This document shows positions 11,401-58,389 of a DNA stretch of 64,000 nt, in pieces (position 1 is the first letter of the stretch; each line of letters begins with the position of its first letter). The position numbers and the translations under genes are program-made. The notes beneath the pieces were generated by a model. It was not told the DNA's origin and searched no databases. It saw only the letters and a list, made by a program, of their open reading frames with translations. The stretch lies in IMG/VR virus record IMGVR_UViG_3300010885_013353, positions 161-64,160 of that record; one strand, given 5' to 3'. The stretch is from a virus. Its lineage: Duplodnaviria; Caudoviricetes.

Positions 11401-11871
11401 AATCTGCAATCCTTTCCCAATCAAACCTCCCGCAAGGGTAGGAATAATAGTTCCGAAAGCTTGGGACATAATGTCCACAGGCGCAACAGCAAACGCTTTA
11501 AACGCATCCTGCACCTGATCAAGCACACCTTTGTCTTGGGCATCTTTCATGATCCGCGCAATCTCTTGCTGATTATTCTTGGCCTGAGCGGACAGCAAGT
11601 TACCTACGTAGTCTTCAACACCACGCAGGTTTTTGGAAATAGCGTTTTCAGCACCAAAGGCATCTGTCAGCATCCGAACGCCAGACACAACACCCTTGGT
11701 AAAGTTGACTGGAATGTCTGCTGCTTGGCGTAATACGCTTTCTTTTTCTTCTGGAGCTTCTTTTTTTAAGCTTGGAAGTAATTCGGTTTCAATAGCTTTT
11801 TGAATGTCCTCACGCGACATTTCGTTAGGAAACTCGACTTTCCCAACTCCTTGGATATCTACAATAGCCAT
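2407..11871 (-). CDS. Giant polyvalent virion/ejection protein (HExxH peptidase, glycosylase-like domain, three ART-like domains, LPD38-like C-terminus)
   Basis: 3154 aa at the end of the ejection-protein cluster; RHEVIH; YHST and YHGT ART-PolyVal-type motifs; C-terminal INF..G...IPFLNA pattern resembling LPD38. Confidence 0.8.
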   Translation of the reverse strand: MAIVDIQGVGKVEFPNEMSREDIQKAIETELLPSLKKEAPEEKESVLRQAADIPVNFTKGVVSGVRMLTDAFGAENAISKNLRGVEDYVGNLLSAQAKNNQQEIARIMKDAQDKGVLDQVQDAFKAFAVAPVDIMSQAFGTIIPTLAGGLIGKGLQIGARAAGIGTGAVMGAGVGKSAIYDAVTEELTKAGLPKEVIEQAATQAQEYGGKNLDLILANTLLGGVAASTGIEKALIPGFAKNITQNLAKRGAFGRAGVTGGQEFLTEGLQGGTEQGSQNIALQREGVDVPTFRGVAGAATMEGLAGGVMGGGVGAFSRPQAAPVAPPRGPVQESVQVPIQETIEEAPAFVPQVIPQQYPMQQGVDLATGVMGGAGLTEADLLGAGEAAIQPGQRERAQALAAQQFGLNEPAPRQEYAPTFASPAAAQQSIDGNRFQQQTPAPVITPSQTIPRTPTQPLNAEQMRQRVDEQSALLGQMQTEPFEFDRRRLSTQADVAGGTGQVRGQPRAVIVDPNPMPPLQARQRLAVLKSDVELSGGDPNSLSIVPHPTMGGRFAIEQRVTAQPYVAPPIETPTVSPAAAQQRIEGAALAGSEAQRLNQDQPRQAMLSRIMRNIEERGGVASPDEAEALRQANMGQPYNRIDYGLAPVKSVDQRLTEATGIDLERPRRETITQANQVAAKEAAAEAQARAAVEERQRVNEERRRMGLEQLAEDEQATAFLAKRQAEAEQRVAQQQQQEQYQQRQAELQNVFGNLPPGPRDVIAALSTPSVNRDAQQIKTVKLAQERMTPNDFGILEMVADNPDSMPNALQRIENEYKVKYSLSNDATPELKETVDDMRKKLLPILKRFGLGKVGLRLVDSIENGTADGMYAKQVITLALDSDNPLGVMRHEVIHALKELGAFTPAEWKVLTKAAKDTWINQFFNRDMQDRYQRVYLEQNGNLDGFPEYMQEEAIAQAFRFYTETKPPSGMIANLMRRLNAFFDALTNFLTGKGFTSIDEMFLPNRIFADIERGAVQPGRAGVRKEGLPEFATKYSTRFSLSGDPTPMSVQKIRVYNKEIEDLTKKIGGRIAGMTSEQTVDDVRKAIKKLQSFTAKGLQGRQWYEQSAKAILDAFNGDKVLAEKLFQIIAITSAATEVSANFTKTVNAWNQFANGKPIKVGTGDTNKKIEALLYFGVDWDGRKTNTFYTNLLEAMEGTDTGRSTIDLHMTRMIFGKDQPTDAQYELAENMVRLLASKMDVPPRQVQAASWVTQKAKGMFEDYRNRGLKKNLNDKELREYAFERAVTDYSHLMKAKVTSLPITSELSEPSPDIRARTQTITGEVIPSVKTTMSQMEELAFADKEKLTKEVQKANTVSDIANALGIKSRIRVTVESGAYEGKVNPNLKVQLINDNLAVSESEAQELAYAMSYVFKQDATPFFRADPSLLNKEQYGISLRFDKSLTPAVQKKILGVMNQYLGADAGFSKVGPNEIVMINYRGDDGNPFLMPDADFITALAKARDDINQFAPIEDAKSFGAKSEYPYHDWQEDPAGDAILKRLQSSGAKRPYLQKRLNNLRESFISKARDAVEKTGAEPRFSLRDFGPSQSALRPSPSSDAGISFNPVKEDAVSFQGSHYGKAKVEALNGAKYGQGLRGAEARRLEQSDDERIKRRVYFYIPRSNNTMPNREAGVGGYVYTQKLDNILAPGATMTRLSREAGGDANKFESLIVDNGYDGYAIPDFGMMVVMNQDVPVNYEGTVDEVHGGKKFSLRAPTTPEFKRFFKDSKVVDEKGQPLVVYHSTYSDFPQFTTNFGENEYFQFGVHFGTQESAENRLEIKKAEDKSRGVRVPQSGANIIPLYANIKNPLRLDENRSGRWGVDDIMNAVMEKADKTGIEGISSQDLDDFYNDRFDIEEWAGLKAEAGSPDYGPESIDRSWSDVNDFAAGERSNLLKVFLKQLGYDGIVYKNEFEGGGDSYIALDSKQVKSTFNTGSFGKDTGKISYSLRAPKTPEFKRFFGNSKIVKPDGTPKVMYHGTARIIDEFIPKQAGAIFVTENPEFAETFSEDSVQYMVNEQIKQLGKKFAEMDPVGQIKFLKKGLRLAVKEKALTSEYAKRIFNRLDEDFKNNKYPTQLEFNGLAEFFKDQIQKELEVGPNIMPVYVRAENPFDFQSSENYTKLVQELNRTGTFKENNLPADFLQRIKNGAWQIIESPEIQEAIKGAGFDGFYVIEGGNKNLAVYNPNQIKSAIGNRGTYDETGRILYSLKNAPPNQYTKLADDDPSTGKAMIDAATSAFNAVRNDGSRTSGRVALVDRYAGLSKTLQPIPLFNDGVLRADMLHHAKAQNINLIKGGLVTGTPILNDDGTIGIEASENNLARAAQLADNLNSNKNVVESGLSGRGYVATVARALRGADIIEEDKATRALGEQQISDANFLAGELKKELKEGKITPRQVAQFQNAIDELRKLGNENRKVNRELQVKPEDIAWAKKQLEMTPEVQEILDIWKTVNTSLVNLHEAVGIIDKQTADKYRAQKNYVPLFKSREDLNEEGFFRTGTGAKTTAKIKELKGADITRNIWENIDKQFATMIAAAYENQTRRVSVEQMRGISPDLAEITNQSDPRVNLRYRDGGKDVHVIIENPNDLAAFQSMTYQMGPIMQIFSGFTKVLRAGALLNPMFWIRQLIRDPISATLTGQAGVITPFHSAKEFLTIITRNSEEARILASRGVIGQFDSTVSLQEFLGDVGKEKQNPPGVIQRGLHRLLEIHEASDAATRVAIFKKAKAKALADGMSESRAVDYAVMKARESINFAITGNSQFLAAARNMIPFLNATIVGLDTLYRAATGYGLNPEEKAKAQRMFATRASMMIAMSLAYAAMMQDDDDYKKLPDYVKDGNWLFPLSDKDGKTFVRVVVPYEVGYLFKTIPEVLVRYMSGTSTGKEALASLKAGFIQNMPTGGVPIPQFAKPTLEVISNHSFHTGRAIEGVGDSLMPVSERGRKASEFAKMMSKAGLDNIGMSPAKIDVFLKGTFAEMGTFGLELADSLILAGTGQDKTPKNFENMPFMRSFLTDPQVNKAISDFYDLEKSATETANLFTRYKNEGRGEELQALVSDKEKLAQIGAAPTLRKLAQEMTKINQAINIIDKSKDIPPQERRDRINELQRVLATVAQQGYQVAGIAGLPR

Positions 11872-16663: not shown

Positions 16664-17341
16664 TCATGCAGGTAGCCTAGACACAAAGACAATACTGCCA
16701 ATTGCGGAGGGATTTGATGGTCTAGCATAAGGCACTGTTTGGGCATTCTCATGCTCAAGGTAAACACCATCAACAGGACCGACAGTGTTGTACGCTTGAT
16801 CGGTTGCCCACCACAGCCCTATAGAGTCACCCGCATTAATCTCAAACGTAACGCTTGAATAACCAACTAGGTGACTGGGAACGAGTGCGCTTTTACGGGC
16901 TGCTATGGTGAACTTACTGCTAGATCCGGGTAAGTCAACGTTGTTTATACGCAGCCAAAGGTACGCATTATGAATAGCATTGTCTGTGTTTGTAAACTGA
17001 ATACTAAAGTCAATTTTGTACACACCACCATAGGCAGCGGTTGCCGTGTTATCTACGTTTAAAGTAAAACCGTCACCAGAATCCAACGTATTCCACGAAA
17101 TCTTAGTTGGTGTGTCGGTAGCTGTGGCGTATTGGTCTGTTGTATCTTGAGCGGCTATATGCGGGTTTTGCAGGTACTGACCGCCACTGCCACCAGCCAA
17201 GGCTGAAGTTACGTTGTCTAACTGACTGAAGTACAAGCGCAGAATGTTTGTAAACTGTTCGTGAAAACGTGACTCGTACTCTCCCGGCGCAATCGGAAGG
17301 TTAGGTGCCTTAGTACCACGAAGCAATAGGTTATTAGCCAC
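16664..17341 (-). CDS. Putative tail needle/hub-associated protein
   Basis: Follows the tail hub gene; short coiled coil then a beta-sandwich-like domain. Confidence 0.5.
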   Translation of the reverse strand: MANNLLLRGTKAPNLPIAPGEYESRFHEQFTNILRLYFSQLDNVTSALAGGSGGQYLQNPHIAAQDTTDQYATATDTPTKISWNTLDSGDGFTLNVDNTATAAYGGVYKIDFSIQFTNTDNAIHNAYLWLRINNVDLPGSSSKFTIAARKSALVPSHLVGYSSVTFEINAGDSIGLWWATDQAYNTVGPVDGVYLEHENAQTVPYARPSNPSAIGSIVFVSRLPA

Positions 17342-43120: not shown

Positions 43121-44623
43121 TCAGTAATACGCAGCCTTGCGTTTAATAACGGGTTCATCATCCTCATCGGAAGCGAGGCGAAGAAACCCACCCTGTCGAA
43201 ATCTCAATAACGCCTGACTGGTAGAGTCAACCAAGTCATCATGCTCGCCGTTTGGAAACGAGGCGCATTCTTCCATGACCTCTTCAGCCCATCTTGTATC
43301 TGGACACCATACATACCCTGATGCAAACAAATCAGATATAGCGTTTACACGGGCTATCTTATCAGAACCCTTGCTTGGTGTGTACTCTGATAAAGGAATA
43401 CCAATCTGCCGCAATTCATATATCAATGGCGCACCTGCGGCTTTCTTTTCAATAATCAACGAATCTGGGTTCCATTCCTTGTACAGCTCATAAGCTTTTT
43501 TCTTTAGCTCTGGGAACTCCATGCGTTGTTTAAACGCATCTAACAGGATAATGTTAACTACATCCACCCCGGTATCATCAGGAAGGTGAAAGACACCCCA
43601 AGTTGTACAGGCAGAGTAGTCGGCCCGACTGTTCTTTTCAAAGGCGGTATCCCAGCTCTGGATTAGGTATTCACAGGTAGGGGGATGGTCCTTATGCCAG
43701 ATCTTCCACATCTCGCGCTTGATGATTGCGCCCTCTTCAGATGTTGGATTCTGTTGGTATTGAGCTTCCCACTTACTGACGGGGATTTCAGCCTTGATTG
43801 CTTCGAGTTCTTTCTTGGACCAGAACTCTTCCCAGAGCGGGTTACCAGAAGGCAAAAGAGCTGGAAACTCAATGACTTCCCACTCATCGCCTTCTCTTTT
43901 AATAGAGTTCTGTAGGATCTGTCCGGTCAGGTCTCTTTTTGACCAGCGGGTCATCACAATAATAATTGATCCGCCCGGTTGAAGTCGCTGACGAGGACCG
44001 GAGGAATACCATTCATAGACCCGATCATAGACCTCTGGGTTGCCTTGCATGGCCTCTTGTTCTGAATGCGGGTCATCAATAATCAGAATGTCAGCGCCCT
44101 TACCTGTTACTGCACCGCCTACACCGATAGCAAAGTAGTCTCCGCCTTTACTGGTATTCCAGCGACCAGCGGCCTTTGAATCACTTGAAAGCTTGGTCTT
44201 AAAGACTTCCTGATAATCAGGACTGTTTACAAGGTTCCTGACCTTTCGACCAAAACCCGTAGCAAGTTCTGCAGTGTGGGCGGTCTGAATGATCTTCTTT
44301 TCAGGATACTTGCCCAGAAACCAAGCTGGAAACAGATAGGATGCAAACTCCGACTTTGTGTGGCGCGGAGGCATGTTGATGATCAATCTCTTTAGTTCTC
44401 CATTGGCAACGCGTTCAAAGGCATCAGCCATGATCTTATGATGCCGACCGGCAATGAAGGCAGACCACATGTTGGTGACAAAAGGCATAAAGCCATCTCT
44501 GCACCGTTCTACTTTATCCGCTCGCAATAGCTGATGGATCTTGGCTATCTCAGGCGAGTTGGCAGGTAAAACATCTAAAAGCTTTAAATACCGCTTTACC
44601 TCATCGGAGGTCAGTAAACTCAT
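43121..44623 (-). CDS. terL: Terminase large subunit
   Basis: MPPRHTKS Walker A, IIDDP Walker B, MTRW, SWDTA, HDDLVD. Confidence 0.95.
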   Translation of the reverse strand: MSLLTSDEVKRYLKLLDVLPANSPEIAKIHQLLRADKVERCRDGFMPFVTNMWSAFIAGRHHKIMADAFERVANGELKRLIINMPPRHTKSEFASYLFPAWFLGKYPEKKIIQTAHTAELATGFGRKVRNLVNSPDYQEVFKTKLSSDSKAAGRWNTSKGGDYFAIGVGGAVTGKGADILIIDDPHSEQEAMQGNPEVYDRVYEWYSSGPRQRLQPGGSIIIVMTRWSKRDLTGQILQNSIKREGDEWEVIEFPALLPSGNPLWEEFWSKKELEAIKAEIPVSKWEAQYQQNPTSEEGAIIKREMWKIWHKDHPPTCEYLIQSWDTAFEKNSRADYSACTTWGVFHLPDDTGVDVVNIILLDAFKQRMEFPELKKKAYELYKEWNPDSLIIEKKAAGAPLIYELRQIGIPLSEYTPSKGSDKIARVNAISDLFASGYVWCPDTRWAEEVMEECASFPNGEHDDLVDSTSQALLRFRQGGFLRLASDEDDEPVIKRKAAYY

Positions 44624-44850
44624 AGCTTCTCGATATGCTGGACCGACTTATCCACTAAAGTCATAGACCGAATAAGGTGGGGGCGGATATCCAGCAATCC
44701 TTCTTTGCGCAACTCATGCACAAGCCGGTGGATGTTTGACTTACTTTTCAAACTCAATCCTTGCGCAATGTCAGCATAGGAAGGCGAAAACCCTTTGATC
44801 TTTATATACGTCTGGACAAAGTCCAAGACTAACTTCTGTTTAGGTGTCAT
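44620..44850 (-). CDS. Stand-alone LexA-like DNA-binding domain
   Basis: MT.KQ..VLDF........G.SPS..DIA..L...S. Confidence 0.8.
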   Translation of the reverse strand: MTPKQKLVLDFVQTYIKIKGFSPSYADIAQGLSLKSKSNIHRLVHELRKEGLLDIRPHLIRSMTLVDKSVQHIEKL

Positions 44851-45094
44851 ATTCTGAGTTAATAATCCAAAACTGTGGAGTGCGCGGACCTACATACGCG
44901 CAAGCAATGTTGAAATCGAAATACTCCCAAGCCTCATCCTCTGACATATCTTCTGCTAACTTATCAATGACCGCGTCTCTACTGTATATAACCACAGGTA
45001 GTCCCTCTGGACTAATGGTTAATCCAACAATGCAGTCATCAAAGCCATCTGCAAACAAAAGCTCAGGGTCTAACTTAGCAAGTTCTTCTTTCAA
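44840..45094 (-). CDS. Conserved hypothetical phage protein
   Basis: ADGFDD.I.G...EA.EYF.FN...AYVG..TP. Confidence 0.65.
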   Translation of the reverse strand: MKEELAKLDPELLFADGFDDCIVGLTISPEGLPVVIYSRDAVIDKLAEDMSEDEAWEYFDFNIACAYVGPRTPQFWIINSEYDT

Positions 45095-45141
45095 AATATA
45101 TATACCCCCGGGGTGAACAAAACAGAAACGTTCTGGGGTGT

Positions 45142-45170
45142 ATTCTCTATCAATGTTTAAACGAAGTCAA
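45142..45170 (-). promoter_or_regulatory. Sigma70-like promoter TTGACT-17-GAGAAT with GTTTAAAC in the spacer
   Basis: Read on the minus strand upstream of the TerL operon. Confidence 0.55.
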
Positions 45171-45180
45171 GCTTAAATGA

Positions 45181-45415
45181 AGAAGGGGTAGGGGTACGAA
45201 CGTTCGTGTTGAGGATTGGATAGTGATAGGATGTGTGGAATGTACTGTATGGGTATACAGGAGTGACGCGCCTGTTCTAGGGGGTGGGGAGTGGGTGGGG
45301 TTGGGCTATGGGCGTATCGCAAAGGGTGGGGCTGTCGCATGGCGGATCGATTGGATTGGATACGATAGGATAGGATAGATCGATTGGGATCGGATAGTCA
45401 ATAGGGATTAGCTAA
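45181..45415. other. G-rich, strand-asymmetric non-coding tract (candidate packaging/terminus region)
   Basis: G-runs and GGAT/GATA iterations between TerS and TerL. Confidence 0.5.
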
Positions 45416-45470
45416 TGACCATATCCGGATACAAAAGACCTGACCAGTTCTCTACAAAGGGTTTAAACGG

Positions 45471-46085
45471 TCAGTGCTTGGTAGCACCATCGAGCAGTGC
45501 AAGGTGCGTCTCGAGTTCCCGTTTCAGTTGGTCGGTGCTGACCTCTTCCACCTTGGTCTCCACCTTGTCGGTGAACATCCCCACAGCCCTGCCGATTAGC
45601 TCCAGTGCTTTGAGCTTAGACCCTTCGCTCTTCATCTCTTTGGCGTGAGCCAGTAGTTCGGTCATGACGTGCCGTCTGGTTGCCACAGCATCACTTACGA
45701 GGTTTTCTTCCCGCTTGTCCAAGGATGACTGGAGCAGGACACTCACTTTTGGATCGTTCATTAGACGATTCGCTGACGTTGCAATCGTGGACTCATTGGC
45801 GGTCAGGCAGTTGTAGGCTTTTCTGTAACTCTCTCTGGGAGAAAGCCCTTGAACTATCAGGGATGCAAATAGTCTTTGCTTAGCTGTTATACGTCCCCTT
45901 GTGTTCAACTTGACACCGTAGAGCTTTCCATCCTTTGTGCGTCTCTCTACGACCGATTCAACCGCTGTTCGCAGTTGCTCACTGTCTAGGACGGGCGCGG
46001 GGATTTTGAAAGCGTGTTCGCCTGTCCCAGTGCTATCACTTAACAGACCGTCAAGGTCATCATCTACCTGTGGTTTTTGGTTCAT
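45471..46085 (-). CDS. terS: Terminase small subunit
   Basis: IT.KQ..FA....G......Y...Y, A.RL...PKV, KALEL.G...GMF.DK. Confidence 0.8.
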   Translation of the reverse strand: MNQKPQVDDDLDGLLSDSTGTGEHAFKIPAPVLDSEQLRTAVESVVERRTKDGKLYGVKLNTRGRITAKQRLFASLIVQGLSPRESYRKAYNCLTANESTIATSANRLMNDPKVSVLLQSSLDKREENLVSDAVATRRHVMTELLAHAKEMKSEGSKLKALELIGRAVGMFTDKVETKVEEVSTDQLKRELETHLALLDGATKH

Positions 46086-46134
46086 TTCCTGTTCCCTTGC
46101 GTATCTGTCTCACGCCCTGAGACACCTGCCTGCG

Positions 46135-46163
46135 ATGATCACTGTTTAAACGTACAGTGTCAA
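46135..46163 (-). promoter_or_regulatory. Sigma70-like promoter TTGACA-17-GATCAT with GTTTAAAC in the spacer
   Basis: Perfect -35 upstream of terS. Confidence 0.6.
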
Positions 46164-46188
46164 CCCCAGTTCGCGAACTGTTCGTAAG

Positions 46189-46237
46189 TTATCCACAATC
46201 TGTTGCAAGTTATCCACATATCCACAAGTTATCCACA
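46189..46237 (+). promoter_or_regulatory. DnaA-box cluster
   Basis: TTATCCACA at 46189, 46210 and 46229, plus ATATCCACA at 46218. Confidence 0.8.
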
Positions 46238-46247
46238 GATTGATGAG

Positions 46248-46527
46248 CTAAGTATTCATTAGAGTTTTTATCGCAGTGGTCAAGGGGTAAGTATCAACCT
46301 CAAAACAAATCGCTCTGAGGGCGTTTAAACGGCTCGCCTTCTGTTTTGCAAAACCCTGTCTTCCAAAAATACGAATTGACTTGCGGTCGCGACCATGCAT
46401 CAGGCACTAAGCATTCATTAGAGTTTTTAACGAGGGGGTCAAGGGGGTAATGTGCATTTCAAAACAAATCGCTTAGCGGTCGTTTAAACAAGCCGCCTTC
46501 TGTTTTGCAAAACCCTCCCTTCCAAAA
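46248..46527 (+). repeat. Two imperfect ~120-bp direct repeats, period 159 bp
   Basis: Units start at 46248 and 46407; share ATTCATTAGAGTTTTTA, CAAAACAAATCGCT, GTTTAAAC, CGCCTTCTGTTTTGCAAAACCCT. Confidence 0.9.
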
Positions 46528-46565
46528 CTAAAAAGGGACAAAACACAACAAAACAGTGAAAGCCC

Positions 46566-46595
46566 TTGTGATGTTTAAACACTATCGAATACACT
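46566..46595 (+). promoter_or_regulatory. Candidate early promoter TTGTGA-18-TACACT with GTTTAAAC in the spacer
   Basis: Upstream of the early operon. Confidence 0.4.
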
Positions 46596-46614
46596 GGAGG
46601 CTCAGTACAACAAG

Positions 46615-46685
46615 GGTTCTAGGTCATCATCCAATAGCCGCCCGACTCGCCAGATGCAGGTTCTAGGTCACCATCCAAGACCGCC
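46615..46685 (+). repeat. Short direct repeat GGTTCTAGGTCAYCATCCAA...CCGCC (x2)
   Basis: Copies at 46615 and 46659. Confidence 0.8.
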
Positions 46686-46821
46686 TACATCACCGCCAGA
46701 TCCCGAGGCGCAGACTCAATCGGGAGGGGTTCTAAAACGTTGCCCCCTTAATAAAAGTGCTGATGGCTAACCAAGAGAACAGCTACCAAAGCAGGGTCAA
46801 GCCGCGAGGCTCAGCCCTGCC

Positions 46822-46867
46822 GAAAGTAACCCGACAGCATCTACTGGGTGCTGTCTGATTTACTTTC
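46822..46867 (+). ncRNA. Long RNA hairpin A (RNase III-site-like)
   Basis: GAAAGTAA/TTACTTTC outer stem and GACAGCA/TGCTGTC inner stem. Confidence 0.6.
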
Positions 46868-46880
46868 ACTGGAGAACATC

Positions 46881-47213
46881 ATGAAATATCAATACATCAC
46901 AAAGCAAGCAATCAAGCCCGAGTCGAGTTGGTCAAATGCAGACCTTGCCTTGTTTCACTACTCCAACCCCAACGGGCTGATGGCTGAAAAGAATGCACTG
47001 AACAAACAGATCAGCGAACTAGTTGATCAGGGCAAGTGCAAGGAATTTGCAGTCATTGCATACGGTTCGCTCAACACCTTATTGCCTGATCGCCTTTATG
47101 GGTTGGTCAACAAAAAAAGAGTCAGTACCAGTGATGTCTGCTACACGCTGACGGCACTAAAGCAAAGTGTCATAAAGGCGCGGGAGTTTATCGCTGAAGT
47201 CAACGCAACCTGA
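46881..47213 (+). CDS. Early hypothetical protein
   Basis: GGAG RBS, first gene of the + operon. Confidence 0.65.
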   Translation: MKYQYITKQAIKPESSWSNADLALFHYSNPNGLMAEKNALNKQISELVDQGKCKEFAVIAYGSLNTLLPDRLYGLVNKKRVSTSDVCYTLTALKQSVIKAREFIAEVNAT

Positions 47214-47260
47214 GAGTCAACCGACAACGTTTTATGAGAGCGTTGTCTGATTTACTTTCA
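47211..47260 (+). ncRNA. Long RNA hairpin B, paralog of hairpin A
   Basis: TGAGAGT/ACTTTCA outer stem and GACAACG/CGTTGTC inner stem; same TGATTTACTTTCA tail. Confidence 0.6.
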
Positions 47261-47278
47261 ACCCAACGGAGATACACC

Positions 47279-47476
47279 ATGCAAACAGCACGTAAAACAG
47301 AACTCATTCAGGACTGGGGATTTGAGCAACACGCAAGCGGCTTCTACTTCCGCGACATCTACAGCGATCATGGCTATCGTGAAATGTGGACAGCGGGAGA
47401 ACCTGACCTAATCAAGTTCCTGAAAGGCGGCGAGTGGTCGCATAACTACCAGATTGACTGGTCACTTTACAACTAA
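47279..47476 (+). CDS. Early hypothetical protein
   Basis: GGAG RBS. Confidence 0.6.
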   Translation: MQTARKTELIQDWGFEQHASGFYFRDIYSDHGYREMWTAGEPDLIKFLKGGEWSHNYQIDWSLYN

Positions 47477-47514
47477 CCAACGGGGCGAAAGCCCCTCACT
47501 ACTGGAGATACACC

Positions 47515-47748
47515 ATGCACACAATGACTGACGTTATCGACTTCGCAAAATGCTCTGCCCTTACTGCCATCGATCAGATGGACGCGTTCGAGGACAGTGA
47601 GACCGCACACTGGCTTAACCTGATCGAAACTTTGAACGAATATCGGGCATCAATTGAGCGCGGTATCGATCAACCCTTTATTAAGACCGTTCGCCAAGCT
47701 CTCAAGGCTTACAACGATGAAATCGAATTAATCAAAGCAACCAACTAA
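47515..47748 (+). CDS. Early hypothetical protein
   Basis: GGAG RBS. Confidence 0.6.
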   Translation: MHTMTDVIDFAKCSALTAIDQMDAFEDSETAHWLNLIETLNEYRASIERGIDQPFIKTVRQALKAYNDEIELIKATN

Positions 47749-47764
47749 CCAACTGGAGATCACT

Positions 47765-47854
47765 ATGGACGCTTACATTTTCTTAGCTGTTTATACCGCC
47801 TACACCGCCCTAGCCTACGGGGTTTTGTATGCCCTTGAAACCCTCGAAAAATAA
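47765..47854 (+). CDS. 29-aa single-TM peptide
   Basis: MDAYIFLAVYTAYTALAYGVLYALETLEK with GGAG RBS. Confidence 0.55.
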   Translation: MDAYIFLAVYTAYTALAYGVLYALETLEK

Positions 47855-47867
47855 AGGAAACCTACAA

Positions 47868-48008
47868 ATGAAAACGCAACCAAGCAAGACCTACCCTTGG
47901 GAACTGATTACCGAACGCGAAAAGCTCTACTTCAAGACATTGAAAGACGCGAGGCTGTTTGCCCAACAACAGGCGTACGGTCTATCGATTATCCGCAAGC
48001 GCAACTGA
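47868..48008 (+). CDS. 46-aa early protein
   Basis: AAGGA RBS; FKTLKDA motif; its stop codon lies in the hammerhead core. Confidence 0.6.
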   Translation: MKTQPSKTYPWELITEREKLYFKTLKDARLFAQQQAYGLSIIRKRN

Positions 48009-48048
48009 TGAGACCTGACTGGTCGAAACCGCTCCGGCGGTCTTGTGC
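47999..48048 (+). ncRNA. Type I hammerhead ribozyme
   Basis: GCGCAA-CTGATGA-GACC(tgact)GGTC-GAAA-CCGC(tccg)GCGG-TC-TTGTGC: full core and three stems. Confidence 0.9.
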
Positions 48049-48067
48049 AAACTAACGGAGGCTTACC

Positions 48068-48307
48068 ATGATATTTTTGACCGCTCCTGCTACAGAAGTT
48101 TACTTACACTGGCTGTCCTCAGTGGTTGAGGACTTTGAAAATCACGATCAAGATGCGTGGATTTCCCACGCCGAGGCTATTGCAATCAACACCCGCAAGG
48201 GTGATGACGTTGTAATCGAAGTTCGAGCCAACGAGTCACTGACTGGCAGACCTGAGACCTTCAAGCTTTCCCCCAATTGGTTTTTTACTTTTCCTGTAGA
48301 GGCTTAA
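48068..48307 (+). CDS. Early hypothetical protein
   Basis: GGAGG RBS. Confidence 0.6.
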   Translation: MIFLTAPATEVYLHWLSSVVEDFENHDQDAWISHAEAIAINTRKGDDVVIEVRANESLTGRPETFKLSPNWFFTFPVEA

Positions 48308-48309
48308 TC

Positions 48310-48888
48310 ATGTACAACAATCGCGAGCAGTACCTCAATGCGGCAGTCGATGAACTGCGCTCAGTGTTCGACTCTGTCAACTACCCTTTGCCTGCGCTGA
48401 TTCGCGTGGCTTGCGGGTTTCCCTCTAGCAAGTCCCGCTCACAGCACCGAGCCATTGGTGAGCATTGGTCACCCAGTGCAAGCACTGACGGGCATCATGA
48501 GATTTTGATCTCGCCTGTGATCGATAACCCTGTTGACGTTTTTGCTGTGCTTGTCCACGAACTGTGCCATGCGGCAACAGACGGTGACGGGCATCGAGGA
48601 CGCTTTCCCCATGCGGCTCGCGCCCTGTGGTTAGAGGGCAAACCGACAAGCACCCATGCGGGTGACCTATTCAAGTCGAATTTCGCAGGCTTGATCGAAA
48701 GCTTGGGCGAGTACCCCCACGCCGCCCTGAACGTGGGCTTGCAGAAAAAGACGCAGTCAACACGCATGCTTAAGGCTCACTGCGTGGCTTGTGGATATAC
48801 CGTACGAATCTCTTTCAAGTGGGCATACAAAGACGGCGCACCGAACTTGCCGTACTGCCCGAATGACTCAGTACCACTCATCGTTTAA
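48310..48888 (+). CDS. SprT-like zinc metallopeptidase with C-terminal Zn ribbon
   Basis: LVHELCH...GH...F; RMLK..C..CGY.VR. Confidence 0.8.
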   Translation: MYNNREQYLNAAVDELRSVFDSVNYPLPALIRVACGFPSSKSRSQHRAIGEHWSPSASTDGHHEILISPVIDNPVDVFAVLVHELCHAATDGDGHRGRFPHAARALWLEGKPTSTHAGDLFKSNFAGLIESLGEYPHAALNVGLQKKTQSTRMLKAHCVACGYTVRISFKWAYKDGAPNLPYCPNDSVPLIV

Positions 48889-48906
48889 ACATCGGAGGCT
48901 TACATC

Positions 48907-50286
48907 ATGCGCGGACTCGTCCTTTTCCCCCTGCCCCAACTCAACGCGGCACTGGTCGCTGTTGGTCAGAAACCAGTCGAAAACAAAACGACTGCCATTG
49001 CTCAGCTTGAGACCTTGGTCAACAGCGGGTTGATCAGCTTTGACCAGATCAAGAATATTGCACCACTTCCCCCTGTATCTGCCGTTGACCCTCGCGTTGA
49101 ACGGATTGCAACCGAGGTGACGCGAGTCGAAAAGCTTATGCATTCTGCCCTGAATGAGGTCTCAGACATTCGGCGCAAGACGCAGAGCTTGCAGGGCGTG
49201 GACTACCACAAGGTCAACGACTCGATCCGCTCGACTGTCGCTGACCTGTTCGATCAGTTCAAGCAGACTGCCCACCAGTTCCCTGTGCAGGCGGCGGCGG
49301 TTGCTAAAGCATTCCCCAAGACGCGCAGGGAAGAGGCACAACACGTCTTTGACGGTGACCTCTTCTACAATGATGACGAGGGCAACTTGATCGACTTCAG
49401 CACGCTTGAGGTCGAGGTCTGGGACGATCCTGCCGCCCCTGCACTGGTGACCGACTACGTGTTCAACCCTGCCGCTTTACACCAGACCCTGATCGCCCTG
49501 TCAACCACTCTGCCCCACAACACGTGGTTGGGCGGTGAGCGTGGCACAGGCAAGACCGAGTTCGTGACCCAGATCGCGGCGCGTCTCAAGCGTAAGCTCT
49601 TCCGTATCAATTTTGACGAGGGTCTGGAGCGTTCCGAGTTCATCGGTTCGAACACAATTGAGAACGGTAACGTGGTCTGGAAAGCAGGCACGTTGACTCA
49701 GGCGATCCAGTACGCAGGCTCGATCATCTTGCTCGATGAGGTCGGCTTTGCTCGTGCGCAGAACATCTCCCCGCTCCATGCGGTGACCGAGCGTTCAGTT
49801 CACCGCGCACTGGTGATCGCTGAGACTGGCGAGCGTATCCCTGTTTCGACTGGCGTGGTGTTCTTTGCCGCTGACAACTCGACTGGGCATGGTGACGAGT
49901 CAGGCAATTTTGCAGGGGTGCGTGAGCAAAACAGCGCGTTCTTGGATCGGTTCAGCTATACGCTCCGGTTCAACTACTTGCCAGAGGATCAAGAGGTTGA
50001 CCTGATCACCAAGCGCACAGGCTTAAACGCAGACGCAACGCGCTCATTGGTTAAGTTTGCCAACGTTGCACGTGCCAAGGCTCGACTGGGTCTACTGACA
50101 CAGCCCCCAAGCTTGCGTCAAATCTTTGCATGGGCGGCGGCAATCAAAGGCGGTTTGCCAGTTGGTACAGCGTTCAATAACGCTATCGTCAACAAGTTTC
50201 CAAGCGAGTGCGAGGCTGAATTGCGCGGGATTTTCTCAGCGTCAATCGACTCTGCTCAACTTAAATCTTATTTAGGGGTGCAGTAA
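48907..50286 (+). CDS. MoxR/CbbQ/CobS-like AAA+ ATPase
   Basis: GERGTGKT Walker A, ILLDE Walker B, AFLDRF. Confidence 0.9.
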   Translation: MRGLVLFPLPQLNAALVAVGQKPVENKTTAIAQLETLVNSGLISFDQIKNIAPLPPVSAVDPRVERIATEVTRVEKLMHSALNEVSDIRRKTQSLQGVDYHKVNDSIRSTVADLFDQFKQTAHQFPVQAAAVAKAFPKTRREEAQHVFDGDLFYNDDEGNLIDFSTLEVEVWDDPAAPALVTDYVFNPAALHQTLIALSTTLPHNTWLGGERGTGKTEFVTQIAARLKRKLFRINFDEGLERSEFIGSNTIENGNVVWKAGTLTQAIQYAGSIILLDEVGFARAQNISPLHAVTERSVHRALVIAETGERIPVSTGVVFFAADNSTGHGDESGNFAGVREQNSAFLDRFSYTLRFNYLPEDQEVDLITKRTGLNADATRSLVKFANVARAKARLGLLTQPPSLRQIFAWAAAIKGGLPVGTAFNNAIVNKFPSECEAELRGIFSASIDSAQLKSYLGVQ

Positions 50287-51290
50287 TGAAAGGGATCGAT
50301 GTCAAACGCGGCGTTGCCGCAACAATGGAGCGGATCGTTGCCAACAGTGGCTCAGCTTTCCGCAGTCTTGAAGTCAAGTGGTTCGGCAACACCGCAGGGA
50401 TCAACTTCACCCGCGAGGGTGCGCAGATCGATGCGACAGTCGTGTTCCCGTCCCTTGACGAGCTTGCCGAGGTTGATCGCGGCACGTTCAATAACCTGAT
50501 CGGCTTTGCCATCCATGAGGGTCTGGGTCATGGGCTGTACACAAACAACGAGCCTTGGGATGACGCTCGAACAACGCATGGTCAGTACGTAGGGCAATTG
50601 ATCAACGGTCTTGAAGACCCGCGCATCGAACAACGTGCCATCGACTCAGGCTTTGCACCCAACAGCAAGTTCCTGTTCGAGAATCTGCTGAACGCTGTGC
50701 TTGAGCGTGACGGGTACGTTGAGCCTGATGACCTGAAAAACATCCCGTTCCTGCTCGCGGTCGAGGGTCGGCGTTTAAACGGCTATCACGTCAACGTCCC
50801 ATCGATCACCGATCAGTCACCATTGGCTGTGCATTTACATGAGGCTCTGCAGTCTGCAAAGAAGTCAAGCAACACTGAGGGCGTGGTGCTTGCGGCGGTC
50901 AAGCTTTACGAGCAGATCAAGAAGTACGCAGACGAGCAACAAGGCTCTAAAAGCAAACCCAAGGGGGATGGCAAGGGTGACCAGAAAAAACCGCCTACAG
51001 ACGGTTCTGACGCGTCTCAGGGGGATTCTCAGGGCAACCCACTGGGTCAGCAAGACAAGCAGGACTCTGAGCAAGGCAAGCAGGACTCCGATCAGGGTGA
51101 CCAGTCGGGTGACCAATCCGACAAGAGCGGGGAGAAGGGCGGGTCAAAGGGCAAGTTGGGCGGGGGGCGCAAGGTTGACCCCGCGAGCTTTATTGAATCG
51201 GAAGTTAAGGACAAGGCGATGGCATCAAAGGAAAGGATTCCTCGTCCGTACACAAACAAACCAACCATTGAAAAATTTACTTGGGAGTGA
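50286..51290 (+). CDS. CobT-N-like putative metallopeptidase domain with low-complexity linker
   Basis: GFAIHEGLGH, NGLEDPRIE; D/Q/G/K-rich tail. Confidence 0.7.
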   Translation: MKGIDVKRGVAATMERIVANSGSAFRSLEVKWFGNTAGINFTREGAQIDATVVFPSLDELAEVDRGTFNNLIGFAIHEGLGHGLYTNNEPWDDARTTHGQYVGQLINGLEDPRIEQRAIDSGFAPNSKFLFENLLNAVLERDGYVEPDDLKNIPFLLAVEGRRLNGYHVNVPSITDQSPLAVHLHEALQSAKKSSNTEGVVLAAVKLYEQIKKYADEQQGSKSKPKGDGKGDQKKPPTDGSDASQGDSQGNPLGQQDKQDSEQGKQDSDQGDQSGDQSDKSGEKGGSKGKLGGGRKVDPASFIESEVKDKAMASKERIPRPYTNKPTIEKFTWE

Positions 51291-51292
51291 TC

Positions 51293-52099
51293 ATGAGGCT
51301 CGACAAAGCAAGCTGTGACCGCAAGTTCTTGCAGTATTACAACGATGTTCCGGTAGGCATGGGCGCGACACGAGCGCATCTCCTGCGCATTCTACGGTCG
51401 GTCGATCTGGTCGGTTGGTCTAGCCACGAAGAGTCAGGCAAGCTTGACCGCAAGGCACTGACCCGCTTTGCTACCGGATCAACCACAGTGTTTAAACGGC
51501 GTGACGTGAAAGAGGCTGACACGAGCGCGGTCTCTGTGCTGATCGATTGCAGTTCATCAATGAACGAAGACGGTCGAATACAGGTCGCGCATGGTGTAGC
51601 AATTCAACTGTCGCGCATCTTTGATAAGGCAGGCGTTAACTTTGCGGTGACCGGATTCAAGGGACACAGCACTGCCCAGTACGCACAGCAACGCGGCAAT
51701 GGTGTTGAGTACAGGACTGATGGCGAGGACACTAGGCTGATCCCGTTCAAGACATGGGGCGAGTCGATGCGCTCTGCCTCTTCCAAGCTTGGATCGATCA
51801 GCTATTGGGCAGGCTCAGCAACGCCCGACTATTCCGCTCTTATGCTATCCATCGAAGACCTTGCCAAACAGCGCGAGACGCGCAAGGTTTTGTTTGTGCT
51901 GACAGATGCGGACGGATTCATTCCTGAGCATATCAGGCACGTACAGAACGTTGCCAAACAGCAGGGCATCACCATTGTTGCGGTAGGTATTGGTTCGCAA
52001 GAGATCAAGCAGGTATTCGACAATGCCAGTGCGGCAAACGATCTGCGCGACTTAGGCTCAGCATCATTCAACACATTACTCAAAACACTCAGGAGGTAG
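51293..52099 (+). CDS. VWA-domain protein (CobT C-terminal-like)
   Basis: SGKLD, LIDCSSSM MIDAS, VLTD, AVGIG. Confidence 0.85.
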   Translation: MRLDKASCDRKFLQYYNDVPVGMGATRAHLLRILRSVDLVGWSSHEESGKLDRKALTRFATGSTTVFKRRDVKEADTSAVSVLIDCSSSMNEDGRIQVAHGVAIQLSRIFDKAGVNFAVTGFKGHSTAQYAQQRGNGVEYRTDGEDTRLIPFKTWGESMRSASSKLGSISYWAGSATPDYSALMLSIEDLAKQRETRKVLFVLTDADGFIPEHIRHVQNVAKQQGITIVAVGIGSQEIKQVFDNASAANDLRDLGSASFNTLLKTLRR

Positions 52100-52100
52100 T

Positions 52101-52295
52101 ATGGAATTATCAGAAAAGCTTGCGGCGGCACTGGACGGGGAGGAGCTAGACGATGTCATCCCCGCGCTCGCCATGCTGTTGGCGCAGGCAGGGGCAATGG
52201 CTTGCAACGACAAGGACGTGTTTAGTGGTTACGTCCTAGAGGTGATAAGCAGTGTTTATGATGCGCAGGATTCAATCAACAATTCAATTCAGTGA
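52101..52295 (+). CDS. Hypothetical protein
   Basis: AGGAGG RBS. Confidence 0.55.
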   Translation: MELSEKLAAALDGEELDDVIPALAMLLAQAGAMACNDKDVFSGYVLEVISSVYDAQDSINNSIQ

Positions 52296-52314
52296 CCAAA
52301 CAAGGAGAAATAAA

Positions 52315-52542
52315 ATGAGTACATGGAACTTTAGATTGTTGGACGTAACTGATGATAACGGCGGTGATCCGTACCTTGAGTTGTGCGAGGTGTACTACAA
52401 CGACAAGGGCGATCCTATAGGGTATAGCGAACCCTGCACAGGTAGTGAGACCATCGAGGGTATGTTGGACTTATTGCGGATGCACTCCCTCGCCTTAAAT
52501 AAACCCGTACTAAAGAAGTCTGACTTTAAAAAGGAGCATTAA
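52315..52542 (+). CDS. Conserved small phage protein
   Basis: WN.R....EVYY...G.P..Y...A..KPVL. Confidence 0.65.
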   Translation: MSTWNFRLLDVTDDNGGDPYLELCEVYYNDKGDPIGYSEPCTGSETIEGMLDLLRMHSLALNKPVLKKSDFKKEH

Positions 52543-52543
52543 A

Positions 52544-52894
52544 ATGGACTATTCAAAATTCTTTATCGAGAAAACCAGTGAGGGTTACATGGTGCGCGAC
52601 ATAGTGTCGGACGAGTACCTGTGCGACAGCAATGGCGATAACACGTTCGAGCTTTGGGCGTACGCGCATGATGTCCTACTCACCCACGTTGAGTCACAGA
52701 CTGTCGAGCGGTACATCGATGACCGTTGGTACACCTCAGACGTGCAAGAGGTGCGTCCTGATTTAAACGATGATCAGGCTTGGGAAGTATTGCAATCGAT
52801 CAAACGCAATCATGACGCGACAGTCGGCATTAACTGGGACGTGATCAGTGATACAGCGGATAACCTTTTCCCCCTGCCGGAGGACGAAGAATGA
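52544..52894 (+). CDS. Hypothetical protein
   Basis: W...DV....PDL...QA..VL.....HDA..GINW. Confidence 0.65.
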   Translation: MDYSKFFIEKTSEGYMVRDIVSDEYLCDSNGDNTFELWAYAHDVLLTHVESQTVERYIDDRWYTSDVQEVRPDLNDDQAWEVLQSIKRNHDATVGINWDVISDTADNLFPLPEDEE

Positions 52895-53287
52895 AAACCT
52901 ATCAAGTGCAAGTTCATTACCAAGCAACAGGATATTTCTCGATCATTGCGGAGAGCGAAGAGGATGCATCACAGCAGGCTATCCGCAAAGCGTACTCAGA
53001 ACATCCAGATGACTTGTTTGCTGAAGTGGTTAACGTTGAGGAGGAAACAGAATGAAGACCGTCGGAGATTGGATCGCCTTTGTGGCGGTCTTTGTTGTTG
53101 CGCTCGCTATGCTTGACTGGGCAATTGATATTTTTGTGGAGTTACCATGATGAAATTTAAAATTAATTTTGTAGATGTAATTGATGCCAACACCGAAGAA
53201 GAGGCATACGAAGAGTTGTTGCGCTACCTTGGCGAGGTTGTTAATAACCAAGACGTAACAGCATTTGATTTTGAGCAAGTTAAGTAA
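52891..53287 (+). CDS. Three coupled mini-ORFs (52891-53055; 53052-53150, TM peptide; 53147-53287)
   Basis: ATGA overlaps; I.A.SEE.A and IDA.TEEEA motifs. Confidence 0.5.
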
Positions 53288-53289
53288 AC

Positions 53290-53327
53290 CACCCCCCTTC
53301 TGCTACGGCGGTCGGGGGGTTTTTTTT
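53290..53327 (+). terminator. Rho-independent terminator of the early operon
   Basis: ACCCCCC...GGGGGGT stem followed by a T-run. Confidence 0.8.
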
Positions 53328-53447
53328 CGCCCAAAGAAACCTGACCAGTTCTCTCTCCCTTGTCGTAGGGAACTCCCAGTCATGACTGTTTAAACGATGA
53401 ATCTCTGCCCGGGAGGACTCCCGCCCGGGCGGTCGGCATATGCTTGT

Positions 53448-53927
53448 TTAAACGCTGAGCAGTACGCTGGTGTCCATGTTTATGTAGGCGTTCGTTCGCG
53501 TGGCTGTTCCACCGTTTATTGTTGCTTGTGTGGTCGTGGAATCAATCCGGATAGACGGCACGTACAAACCATTGGCATCGACAAGCTCTTGCACCAACAG
53601 AACATCGGACTGCTTGAGGTACAAGAACCCAACGACTTTGACGCACAACGACTTAGCGATTGACCTTGCCCGCTCAAGCTTGTCGAACGTCACCAACCAT
53701 TCATTGCTGTATGACTGTTTAAACTTCATAAGGTCACAGTCGTACCTGCACTTGGTTTCCACTATCGCCTTGATGCAATTATCCAAAACAAGAAACGCAT
53801 CAACGTCCGCAGGACGATCCTTCGGGGTCTCAATGTACCTGTACTTCGGGTAGGAGATTAGGAATATCTCCTTTGCCCTCTGTTCGTCAGGCAACGTGGT
53901 TTGCCCCCTCGGCGAAAGAATATCCAT
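53448..53927 (-). CDS. PD-(D/E)XK nuclease-like protein
   Basis: DVDA...IVETKCR. Confidence 0.6.
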   Translation of the reverse strand: MDILSPRGQTTLPDEQRAKEIFLISYPKYRYIETPKDRPADVDAFLVLDNCIKAIVETKCRYDCDLMKFKQSYSNEWLVTFDKLERARSIAKSLCVKVVGFLYLKQSDVLLVQELVDANGLYVPSIRIDSTTTQATINGGTATRTNAYINMDTSVLLSV

Positions 53928-56341: not shown

Positions 56342-56830
56342 CTATCTTCCCCCATGACAAGCGAACTCACCATGATGCTGTTCACGAGCCAGACGGCAGC
56401 ACTGATCCGCTAAATTGACATCCCTGAACCTGCCAAGAGTTTTTACTTTTCCGTGAATGCGAATCCTCGCAACCCATTTTTGAGTAGATTTCTCCCAGTA
56501 AACGCCTTTTATTTTTGACTTGCTTGTGCTTTTAAAGTTTGCATTGTATTGATTTTGCTGAACGGTAGCTGCACGTAAGTTTTCAATTCTGTTGTCATCC
56601 TTAATGCCGTTGATGTGATCAATGACATCCGGAAAAAATCCATGAAACATCAAAAAAATAAGTCGGTGTTCCATGTATGACTTGCTACGGACTGTTATTT
56701 TTCTATAACCCCTAGCATTTTTTGTCCCCGCTCTGACCCCATACAGTTGGGGTTTTTGTAGAATGATTGCATTCCAATACAACGCACCGTTGTTGTATAC
56801 AAACAATCCCTTGACCAATTCTTGGTTCAC
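56342..56830 (-). CDS. HNH homing endonuclease with AP2-like domain
   Basis: HRLIF...IDHING.K.DNRIENLR...KGVYW...KW.ARI...LG.F. Confidence 0.9.
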   Translation of the reverse strand: MNQELVKGLFVYNNGALYWNAIILQKPQLYGVRAGTKNARGYRKITVRSKSYMEHRLIFLMFHGFFPDVIDHINGIKDDNRIENLRAATVQQNQYNANFKSTSKSKIKGVYWEKSTQKWVARIRIHGKVKTLGRFRDVNLADQCCRLAREQHHGEFACHGGR

Positions 56831-56834
56831 ATAG

Positions 56835-56945
56835 CCGCCAATAAAAAAAGCCTTAGTTAGCATCCTCACCGTTTTAAGGTGTTGGCGGACTTGTGGACAC
56901 AAGCAGGACGCTAACTAAGGCTTGTCCAATGAATCACCCCCGCCA
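56835..56945 (-). ncRNA. C4/CI-like antisense RNA with flanking target boxes
   Basis: 19-bp stem, two inner hairpins, CCGCCAA in the junction, TTGGCGG upstream and downstream. Confidence 0.65.
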
Positions 56946-57289: not shown

Positions 57290-57643
57290 TTATTTTTTGG
57301 TGACCGTTATCTCGCATCGAGGGTTCTCTTTATCCAACCCCCAGTAGATGTGCTTCTCTTTTACCTGTCGGTCGTTCAGGTAAGTGACCCCCTGCAGTAA
57401 ATCAAGGATCAGACTCTCGTCTAGGTCAGGTCTGCGTGACGCATAGTGAATCGTCATGGTGACAATCACATCCCCTGTGAACGGTTCGCATCCCAGCGAA
57501 GCAACTTGCTGTTGAAACGCATCAGCATAAGACAGGGCTTTTGCAGACTTTATCAGCCGTGACATAGAGCCAAACCGTACTAACCTGCGGGAGTTCGACT
57601 TTGAGGCAGGTTCGCCGTATATGGTCAAGGTGATGTTGCTCAT
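57290..57643 (-). CDS. rusA: RusA-like Holliday junction resolvase
   Basis: G.P.SK.N, RRPDLD....D.LQG..Y.NDRQV, NPR.EI. Confidence 0.8.
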   Translation of the reverse strand: MSNITLTIYGEPASKSNSRRLVRFGSMSRLIKSAKALSYADAFQQQVASLGCEPFTGDVIVTMTIHYASRRPDLDESLILDLLQGVTYLNDRQVKEKHIYWGLDKENPRCEITVTKK

Positions 57644-58389
57644 AATTTATTCAAACCTTCTGTTGGGTAGCCAAGCTTTTTTGCCTGACGATTCCACGCA
57701 CGGGCGGCTGCTTCTGGCGTATCAAACCTTCCAAGGTGGATGATTTGTTTCTTGTGCTTAATTGAAGCTTGATATTTGTTGCGTGTTTTATCGTGATATA
57801 CGCCCTTGAAACCAGAATTTGATGTTGGCAATCTAAATCTGTTTGCTTTGGCTAGTTTTTTTCGATGTTGTTTTGTAATCACCTTCCCTTTGCATGACTC
57901 TGCCAGATTGCGACAATGATCTAAGGTTCTCGGTGGTTTTGGTATCCCCTTCAGCGCGGCAGAAAGCTTTGCAATTGCCTGCTCTGACATTGATTTCCCA
58001 AGCTTTGCCTTCCTCATTAAAAGACGTGTCCTTTCGGTCGGGCTGTACATTCCACTGCCGCCGCCGTTACCGTTCACCAACCCATTTTTTTTGAAATGTT
58101 TAATCCAATTACGCTCTGCATCCGAATGAGATCCATACTCTACCGCTTGCAAAACTCGCAAAGTGGGGCGTAATAATTCCGCCCTTAATTCACTTAGCCA
58201 TCCGCATTTACAAGAACCTTTCGCATCCCGTAGATGCGCAGTCAGCCTGTTTTTAGGTGAATCGGACTTGCCGACATAACGAACCAACCCATCTCTAGGG
58301 TCAACGAGAGCGTAGATGTATGTCAATCTACACACATCTGTGCTTTTTGATGCAGGCTCGCCAAAAATAATTAATGAAAGTACTTGCAT
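57640..58389 (-). CDS. GIY-YIG homing endonuclease with NUMOD3-like and AP2 domains, fused to a RusA-like N-terminus
   Basis: YIYAL.DPR...VRYVGK....R...H; SGFKGV...LGRF.T.E.AARA. Confidence 0.85.
   Translation of the reverse strand: MQVLSLIIFGEPASKSTDVCRLTYIYALVDPRDGLVRYVGKSDSPKNRLTAHLRDAKGSCKCGWLSELRAELLRPTLRVLQAVEYGSHSDAERNWIKHFKKNGLVNGNGGGSGMYSPTERTRLLMRKAKLGKSMSEQAIAKLSAALKGIPKPPRTLDHCRNLAESCKGKVITKQHRKKLAKANRFRLPTSNSGFKGVYHDKTRNKYQASIKHKKQIIHLGRFDTPEAAARAWNRQAKKLGYPTEGLNKL

Follow-up and report, generated by a model that had tools for sequence, protein, structure and literature searches.

A covarying type I hammerhead ribozyme between phage genes, with a probable role in intercistronic mRNA processing

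The window analysed here is a stretch of 64,000 nucleotides (nt) from an uncultured virus of the Caudoviricetes (IMG/VR record IMGVR_UViG_3300010885_013353, positions 161 to 64,160). The source record comprises 64,160 bases with terminal repeats, and the window covers nearly all of it. Positions 47999-48048 on the + strand hold a type I hammerhead ribozyme, recognized by its core, stems, fold, covariation and a descriptor search. We are highly confident that this segment is a hammerhead maintained by selection, and it is very probably catalytically active. It occupies the spacer between two small open reading frames (ORFs), where a constitutive role in processing or insulating intercistronic mRNA appears probable. 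By the pattern and model matches described below, the hammerhead is a member of a widespread class of phage type I hammerheads. Although of an ordinary kind, the element points to a large class of hammerheads that is easily recognized yet under-annotated, and that is missed by Rfam thresholds.

All parts of the motif lie on the + strand. Stem I is formed by GCGCAA (47999-48004) and UUGUGC (48043-48048), which make six pairs including one G-U. The core CUGAUGA (48005-48011) is followed by stem II, in which GACC (48012-48015) pairs with GGUC (48021-48024) around loop UGACU, and by GAAA (48025-48028). Stem III consists of CCGC (48029-48032) and GCGG (48037-48040) around loop UCCG, plus the pair A48028-U48041. 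The predicted self-cleavage site lies at 48042/48043, because C17 of the GUC triplet in hammerhead numbering corresponds to C48042. Every invariant core base is present (C3 U4 G5 A6 N7 G8 A9, G12 A13 A14, A15.1-U16.1 and H17). The core-adjacent pairs are all standard, i.e., G48012-C48024 (10.1-11.1), U48043-A48004 (1.1-2.1) and A48028-U48041 (15.1-16.1); such pairs together with three helices are the acceptance criteria given in the Methods of Perreault et al. (2011, PMC3088659). The topology is that of type I, with both ends in the open stem I and stems II and III closed by their loops. The first-pass annotation, made from the sequence letters, had described these stems, the core, the GAAA, the GUC triplet and a cut after 48042 as a match to the hammerhead consensus. 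Each element was found where it had been placed, and the consensus match extends to all invariant bases, the three stems and the core-adjacent pairs.

The minimum-free-energy fold of 47985-48065 is a three-way junction, with an ordinary folding energy (z = -0.57). A descriptor requiring the core, GAAA, UH and stems of at least five, three and three pairs gave one match on the two strands of the window, as compared to zero for 300 first-order Markov random sequences of the same length. The Rfam model RF00163 (Hammerhead_1) aligned end to end over 47999-48048 (model positions 1-45), with a score of 22.1 bits (E 0.0036 for a search of 251 nt) against a gathering score of 34. Of the Rfam comparison that the first-pass annotation had proposed as a check, the full-length alignment therefore stands, and the score falls short. 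The missed gathering score is a threshold of one curated model and not a biological criterion. With the same model, two relatives described below scored 27.3 and 29.3 bits. A scan of the whole window at the gathering scores of Rfam returned nothing, and the E-value mode returned only RF00163 and RAGATH-1-hammerhead (17.9 bits, E 1.1). Matches to RF00163 at E ≤ 10 are unspecific, because 13 of 14 control genomes have them too. A chance resemblance or a decayed, inactive relic would agree with a score under the gathering cut-off and with the unexceptional folding energy. With no match in the 300 random sequences, and with an invariant core and covarying stems in the relatives, we regard such an origin as highly improbable.

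Related loci were identified through a conserved protein of 192 amino acids (aa), phrog_6361, which is encoded downstream of the hammerhead; 17 viral loci were found, with protein identities of 59-99%. In 16 of these, L016 being the exception, a core-to-GAAA match with an identical span of 24 nt lies upstream of the phrog_6361 gene. The 17 related hammerhead sequences, 11 of them distinct, could be aligned without ambiguity, and their core is invariant apart from N7, which is U or C. Among the 11 distinct sequences all 171 pair cells are standard pairs, and compensatory changes occur at 9 of the 16 pairs, in all three stems. None of 500 shuffles reached this level of pairing and covariation, and partners slid by one to three columns paired at only 31-46%. 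The RNAalifold consensus independently gave the same three helices and junction. Because stems I-III covary and the core is invariant across the relatives, the ribozyme appears to be under selection.

A covariance model (R1) built from this alignment recognized one site in the window. In the related locus L004 it detected a second hammerhead with 59.3 bits, a copy that was absent from the training set. This second copy is orthologous to the copy in the window, with flanks that are 92% identical. Its stem II is GGGU/ACCC, as compared to GACC/GGUC in the window, so that three of the four pairs differ and all are compensated. The two L004 hammerheads, at 1981-2030 and 2178-2227, flank a single 46-aa ORF that starts like its homologue upstream of the hammerhead in the window (47868-48008), with MKTQPSKT. 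Cleavage at both sites would release an RNA of about 197 nt that has a 5'-OH at one end and a cyclic phosphate at the other.

The upstream flanks of the relatives show no relationship as far as the edge of stem I, in contrast to the conserved hammerhead and the leader that follows it. Positions 47998-48070, which hold both, form a 73-nt island of homology to loci L002 and L005, with 97% identity. In 18 copies of the hammerhead, the ORFs located downstream belong to six different families, and the distance from hammerhead to phrog_6361 gene ranges from 187 to 887 nt. The leader (the GGAGGCTTACCATG region) is present twice in L002-L005, once on each side of inserted ORFs. Such an arrangement may indicate that the block of about 73 nt serves mainly as a DNA-level homology patch for swapping small accessory genes, with ribozyme activity being secondary. 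The exact break of homology at the 5' edge of stem I fits this, as do the exchange of ORF families and the variable distance behind the hammerhead, the leader duplicated around inserted ORFs, and the L004 hammerheads on both sides of one small ORF. However, a recombination patch needs neither invariant unpaired core bases nor compensatory changes in the stems, and divergence of the stems lowers homology. We consider a mainly recombinational role quite unlikely; it is compatible with a role in RNA processing and does not exclude it.

Outside the relatives of the window, a search of viral contigs with a degenerate pattern derived from the alignment yielded at least 120 stretches; the counts given here rest on the 80 that were submitted to R1. 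The model gave 138 matches at E ≤ 0.001 in 78 of these 80 further viral loci. Two or more copies were present in 34 of the 78 loci, and copies on mixed strands in none. Same-strand arrays with copies a few hundred nt apart include seven copies in L099, six in L034 and five in L175, and there are eight within 5.8 kb of L157 and six within 2.7 kb of L167. The copies in L099 each precede a conserved element of about 30 nt, and the start codon is about 39 nt away. Over the class, in an alignment that was fitted to the model, pairing reaches 99.6% among 127 distinct sequences, with covariation at 14 of 16 pairs. The Rfam gathering score of any family was reached by none of the 57 class matches in 16 loci. 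When the same pattern was applied to prokaryote genomes (596 billion bases, two strands), 35 stretches were found, of which about 17 are expected by chance on the basis of 18 fixed bases and an assumed uniform composition. R1 matched in 21 of these 35 prokaryote loci, and many of them are short contigs of metagenome-assembled genomes with arrays.

Two cultured phages carry a class member, Flavobacterium phage vB_FspP_elemoC_14-1A and Pelagibacter phage Jormungand, and in neither is it annotated as RNA. In the former (MT497067.1, about 16950-17005; L181, 2462-2569), an antisense coding sequence for a 35-aa 'hypothetical protein' is called over the hammerhead; in at least one GenBank phage record, then, a doubtful antisense ORF is annotated over a member of the class. 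In Jormungand (MT375528.1; L182, 2497-2557), the hammerhead and the 3' end of gp49 overlap, with ArdA genes located upstream of the hammerhead and MarR and integrase genes downstream. Experiments in real infections are feasible because these cultured phages carry class members. A blastn comparison of window positions 47400-48900 with cultured phages gave no match.

For the analysis of gene context, the 138 matches and 18 from the first set of loci (156 in total) were reduced to 140 contexts by removing exact duplicates and matches without a full 6-nt stem I ahead of the core. Stem I has six pairs in these contexts, and 125 of the 140 have GUC as cleavage triplet. The window copy lies between the 46-aa ORF (47868-48008, +), which has no Pfam or PHROG family, and a 79-aa ORF (48068-48307, +), for which no family was found either and which would be the first cistron of the 3' cleavage product. 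The stop codon TGA of the upstream ORF (48006-48008) coincides with U4-G5-A6 of the core. The downstream ORF has a GGAGG ribosome-binding site (RBS) at 48057-48061 and its ATG at 48068-48070. The post-cut leader is 25 nt long, because the cut is at 48042/48043 and the next ATG at 48068. Two further claims of the first-pass annotation, that the core UGA ends the upstream ORF and that the cut falls 25 nt ahead of the ATG with the GGAGG left intact, are borne out by these coordinates.

The arrangement in the window follows a rule of the class. Upstream stop positions were measured from the first base of stem I, and in 130 of the 140 contexts an upstream ORF of 45 aa or more ends near the ribozyme. 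The stop at +7, formed by the core UGA as in the window, is found in 31 of the 130. A TAG at -2 that uses G1 occurs in 24, a TAA within stem I at +3 in 23, a stop at -3 that directly abuts stem I in 16, and a stop in loop II at +17 in 9. Four contexts have the stop elsewhere within the ribozyme (+2, +18, +20 and +21), 22 have it farther upstream (-4 to -55), and a single value of +266 is an artefact caused by a downstream ORF that was extended in frame upstream through the ribozyme. The overlap with a stop codon seen in the window is thus one of several recurring arrangements. Downstream start codons cluster 14-25 nt past the ribozyme, and the offsets of the window (stop at +7, start at +20) are within the rule. 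A context was scored as positive if an ORF of 45 aa or more ended at -10 to +21 and another of 40 aa or more had its start 5-40 nt past the ribozyme. Of the 140 contexts, 114 were positive; the opposite strand gave 1 of 140, and random positions within the same loci gave 21 of 700.

The position of the stop codons suggests a possible link to translation. The footprint of a ribosome extends about a dozen nt beyond its A site in the 3' direction. A ribosome terminating at -3 to +17 would therefore either cover the 5' half of the ribozyme or melt it, and upstream translation and ribozyme folding would be mutually exclusive at any moment. In a translation-gated ribozyme, a generalised form of the gating by the terminating ribosome that the first-pass annotation had put forward as possible, the ribosome at the upstream stop would unfold stem I and the core and cleavage would occur only when the upstream ORF is untranslated, coupling the processing of the downstream mRNA to upstream translation. 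The stop lies inside the hammerhead in 67 of the 130 contexts and abuts it at -3 or -2 in another 40, and the stop codons make use of bases that are conserved in the ribozyme, namely A-1, G1, A5A6 of stem I, the core UGA (the case in the window) or loop II. On the other hand, the stop position varies over five common arrangements, with 22 of 130 stops lying 4-55 nt upstream. Loci L002 and L005 lack the 46-aa ORF, and only a doubtful 31-aa frame runs into the same ribozyme there. Ordinary genome compaction accounts for the same pattern: since several stop offsets are about equally common, they fit tight packing against the upstream gene as well as a ribosome gate. We judge gating by translation to be unlikely.

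Self-processing of the mRNA, as proposed in the first-pass annotation, agrees with the position of the ribozyme: the upstream piece would keep its stop codon and the downstream piece its GGAGG. From the motif, its selection and its gene context, we infer the following course of cleavage and its consequences. The transcribed ribozyme would fold as a three-way junction and cut itself after C48042. Hammerhead cleavage yields 2',3'-cyclic phosphate and 5'-OH ends (PMC8782182). The 5' product would be an mRNA for the 46-aa ORF with its stop retained and a 34-nt tail, which contains hairpins II and III and ends in a 2',3'-cyclic phosphate. The 3' product would begin with a 5'-OH at U48043, followed by the 6 nt of the former stem I, AA, a short A-rich spacer and GGAGG, and would then carry the 79-aa ORF and the phrog_6361, AAA and VWA genes. 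In the type I topology the cut is located close to the 3' boundary of the motif. Because all observed upstream stops lie 5' of the cut, the 5' product would stay a complete message. Irrespective of the sequence upstream, the downstream genes would receive a constant 5' end, and the two mRNAs would be uncoupled in their fates. For the class as a whole, the hammerheads probably cut long mRNAs into separate gene-sized pieces.

Two ideas on access to the RBS were examined and rejected. Unmasking of the RBS by the cut is not apparent from the predicted folds of 138 contexts, in which the 25-nt leader has an average probability of being unpaired of 0.62 before cleavage (precursor) and 0.68 after it (product). 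A distal extension of stem I that would mask the RBS, seen in the fold of the window (UCCG, 47992-47995, with CGGA, 48056-48059) is not kept in other upstream contexts. Since the accessibility of the RBS is predicted to be unchanged, a gain more likely lies in mRNA fate or in independence from the upstream context. Accessibility that is no better after cleavage would also suit a down-regulating cut, in which one of the products is destabilised, e.g., by 5'-OH-dependent decay as for glmS in Bacillus, and downstream expression is lowered; cleavage of the glmS ribozyme reduces gene expression (PMC6765202). Conservation of the hammerhead upstream of the phrog_6361 gene in 16 of 17 relatives is hard to square with such an effect, and we find it improbable.

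Conserved adenines flank the paired region. The unpaired A on the 5' side of stem I (47998, +) is an A in 136 of 140 class contexts and in all 17 related sequences. On the 3' side, the unpaired AA (48049-48050, +) is represented by an A at +1 in 128 and at +2 in 114 of the 140 contexts. These flanking positions lie outside both the search pattern and model R1. They may stand in for a loop I: located six pairs from the core, the unpaired As might contact the 5-nt loop II, which is four pairs from the core. Inspection by eye of the aligned related sequences revealed no pseudoknot between loop II and the flanks.

A reading that combines translation, cassette exchange and the flanking As describes the class as a translation-aware cassette insulator. 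The ribozyme would be designed to take up the stop codon of the upstream gene among its conserved bases and to be cut directly before a standard leader. Ribosomes on the upstream gene would for a time hold the ribozyme unfolded; folding would then irreversibly free an mRNA with a constant 5'-OH leader. The block of about 70 nt would mark points where small accessory genes, possibly for anti-defence, are exchanged without disturbing the expression of their neighbours, and the A and AA flanks of the six-pair stem I would supply the contact with loop II that a closed loop or bulge gives elsewhere. We put this forward tentatively, as a speculation.

Several observations weigh against constitutive processing and insulation, or against the strength with which they can be claimed, and the sub-threshold Rfam score is one of them. 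The 140 class contexts are mutually related, and the pattern used to collect them predetermines part of the motif. For the contact between stem I and loop II, which is needed for fast cleavage at cellular Mg2+, the conserved flanking As are candidates. For the window itself, the predicted unpaired probability of the leader is 0.70 before and 0.70 after the cut, with no obvious translational gain. Among the matches listed for sequencing runs bearing the sequence, all 20 rows are DNA contigs and no RNA run is included. A search of 44500-53500 gave no sigma-70-like promoter on the + strand, and the assignment of the locus to an early operon in the first-pass annotation is not established. In addition, a weak terminator-like hairpin is present at 47807-47823. 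With these points included, we still regard constitutive intercistronic processing as the probable role.

The hammerhead is part of a gene cluster on the + strand (46848-53055), located beside a non-coding region with DnaA-box-like repeats. The 192-aa phrog_6361 protein (48310-48888, +; PHROG match with E 2.3e-37) is of unknown function and contains an HExxH motif. It had been labelled SprT, for which we found no support in Pfam, NCBIfam or PDB sequences; its match is to phrog_6361, and the HExxH motif is noted. The labels AAA and VWA for two genes farther downstream were upheld by family matches. The first encodes a CobS/MoxR-like AAA+ ATPase (48907-50286, +; AAA_5 and CbbQ_C matches) and the second a CobT-like VWA-domain protein (51281-52099, +; CobT_C and VWA matches).

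The non-coding region upstream of the operon contains three exact TTATCCACA words (46189-46197, 46210-46218 and 46229-46237, +) plus one ATCCACA within 50 nt. These words match the DnaA-box consensus, which suggests that 46189-46237 is a candidate replication origin or DnaA-binding region. The same region has two direct repeats of 133 nt (46248-46380 and 46407-46539; 79% identical, 159 nt apart), and a 20-nt repeat is found at 46615-46634 and 46659-46678. An Rfam search in E-value mode of 46050-47990 for a second ribozyme or RAGATH motif returned nothing.

Two hairpins (46822-46868 and 47210-47260, +) have stems of 10-11 pairs that differ in sequence with pairing kept. Each is followed by an identical 17-mer, TGTCTGATTTACTTTCA, with an ORF start just downstream. 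Both hairpins are kept at 87-96% in L002, L003, L005 and L018, and in L004 they are inside a longer block of 98%. Possible functions are those of a terminator, a processing site or a promoter element. Linkers or leaders between the small ORFs of the operon are also repeated (47268-47287 and 47504-47523; 47470-47484 and 47742-47756), and the small operon genes look like exchangeable cassettes. Elsewhere in the window, ORFs resembling HNH or homing endonucleases (56342-56902, 57640-58389 and 1060-1734) are scattered in replication and recombination modules. A 3154-aa ORF (2407-11871, -) has ART-PolyVal (ADP-ribosyltransferase of polyvalent proteins), LPD38 and DUF7178 domains and encodes a phage polyvalent protein. 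An N4-like phage with hairpin early promoters was considered on account of this large ORF and rejected, as the polyvalent protein matches no RNA polymerase family.

Among known systems, RF00163 shares the topology and a full-length alignment with the window hammerhead, which scores below the gathering score of that family. RiboJ is an engineered hammerhead insulator derived from a satellite RNA, in which cleavage upstream of the RBS strips variable upstream RNA and standardises the 5' leader. We propose a similar action for the window hammerhead, with no relation by descent; the insulating effect would follow from the predicted cut. The glmS ribozyme resembles it as a self-cleaving RNA in a bacterial mRNA leader, where the cut alters the fate of the downstream message (PMC6765202), but it has another fold and depends on a metabolite, and no ligand-binding element is evident in the window. 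According to the same source, the roles of hammerheads in bacteria and phages are largely elusive and processing of polycistronic transcripts has been suggested. The context rules of the class (an integrated stop, a start 14-25 nt after the ribozyme and same-strand arrays) make this 'processing of polycistronic RNA' experimentally concrete. The strongest gene associations of hammerheads are reported for Mu-like phages (PMC10085705); the capsid protein encoded in the window has a weak Mu-like gpT match.

The closest comparison is with the hammerheads of Perreault et al. (2011, PMC3088659), who described hundreds in bacteria, many of them near prophage genes. Hammerheads between phage genes have been known since that work, which proposed processing of polycistronic RNA and tested tandem arrangements: polycistronic RNAs of about 2 kb were cut in vitro, and one arrangement also in E. 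coli. Like the window copy, these prophage and phage hammerheads have a consensus core and three stems, are intergenic in operons, and occur in several copies that often flank genes or short blocks. Neighbours such as ardA, marR and integrase genes are shared between them and the class member of Pelagibacter phage Jormungand. In the haloviruses HF1 and HF2, the same study reports a mapped transcript 5' end within three nt of the hammerhead site, 13 nt upstream of a start codon. This HHphage element is similar in lying a few nt upstream of a start (13 there, 25 here) and in heading a gene block on one transcript. It differs in having an atypical core insertion and in coming from archaeal viruses of salterns, whereas the core in the window is fully canonical and the phage, by its run labels, is from fresh water. 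Compared with the hammerheads of PMC3088659, the present subgroup has an open six-pair stem I with conserved A (5') and AA (3') flanks and an upstream stop that is usually built in. Stem II has four pairs and a 5-nt U-N-A-N-U loop, although the loop and stem II length are partly fixed by the search pattern. The alignments of that study may already hold members of the subgroup; what we did not encounter in the literature consulted is its fixed architecture with flanking As and the counted rule of a built-in stop codon.

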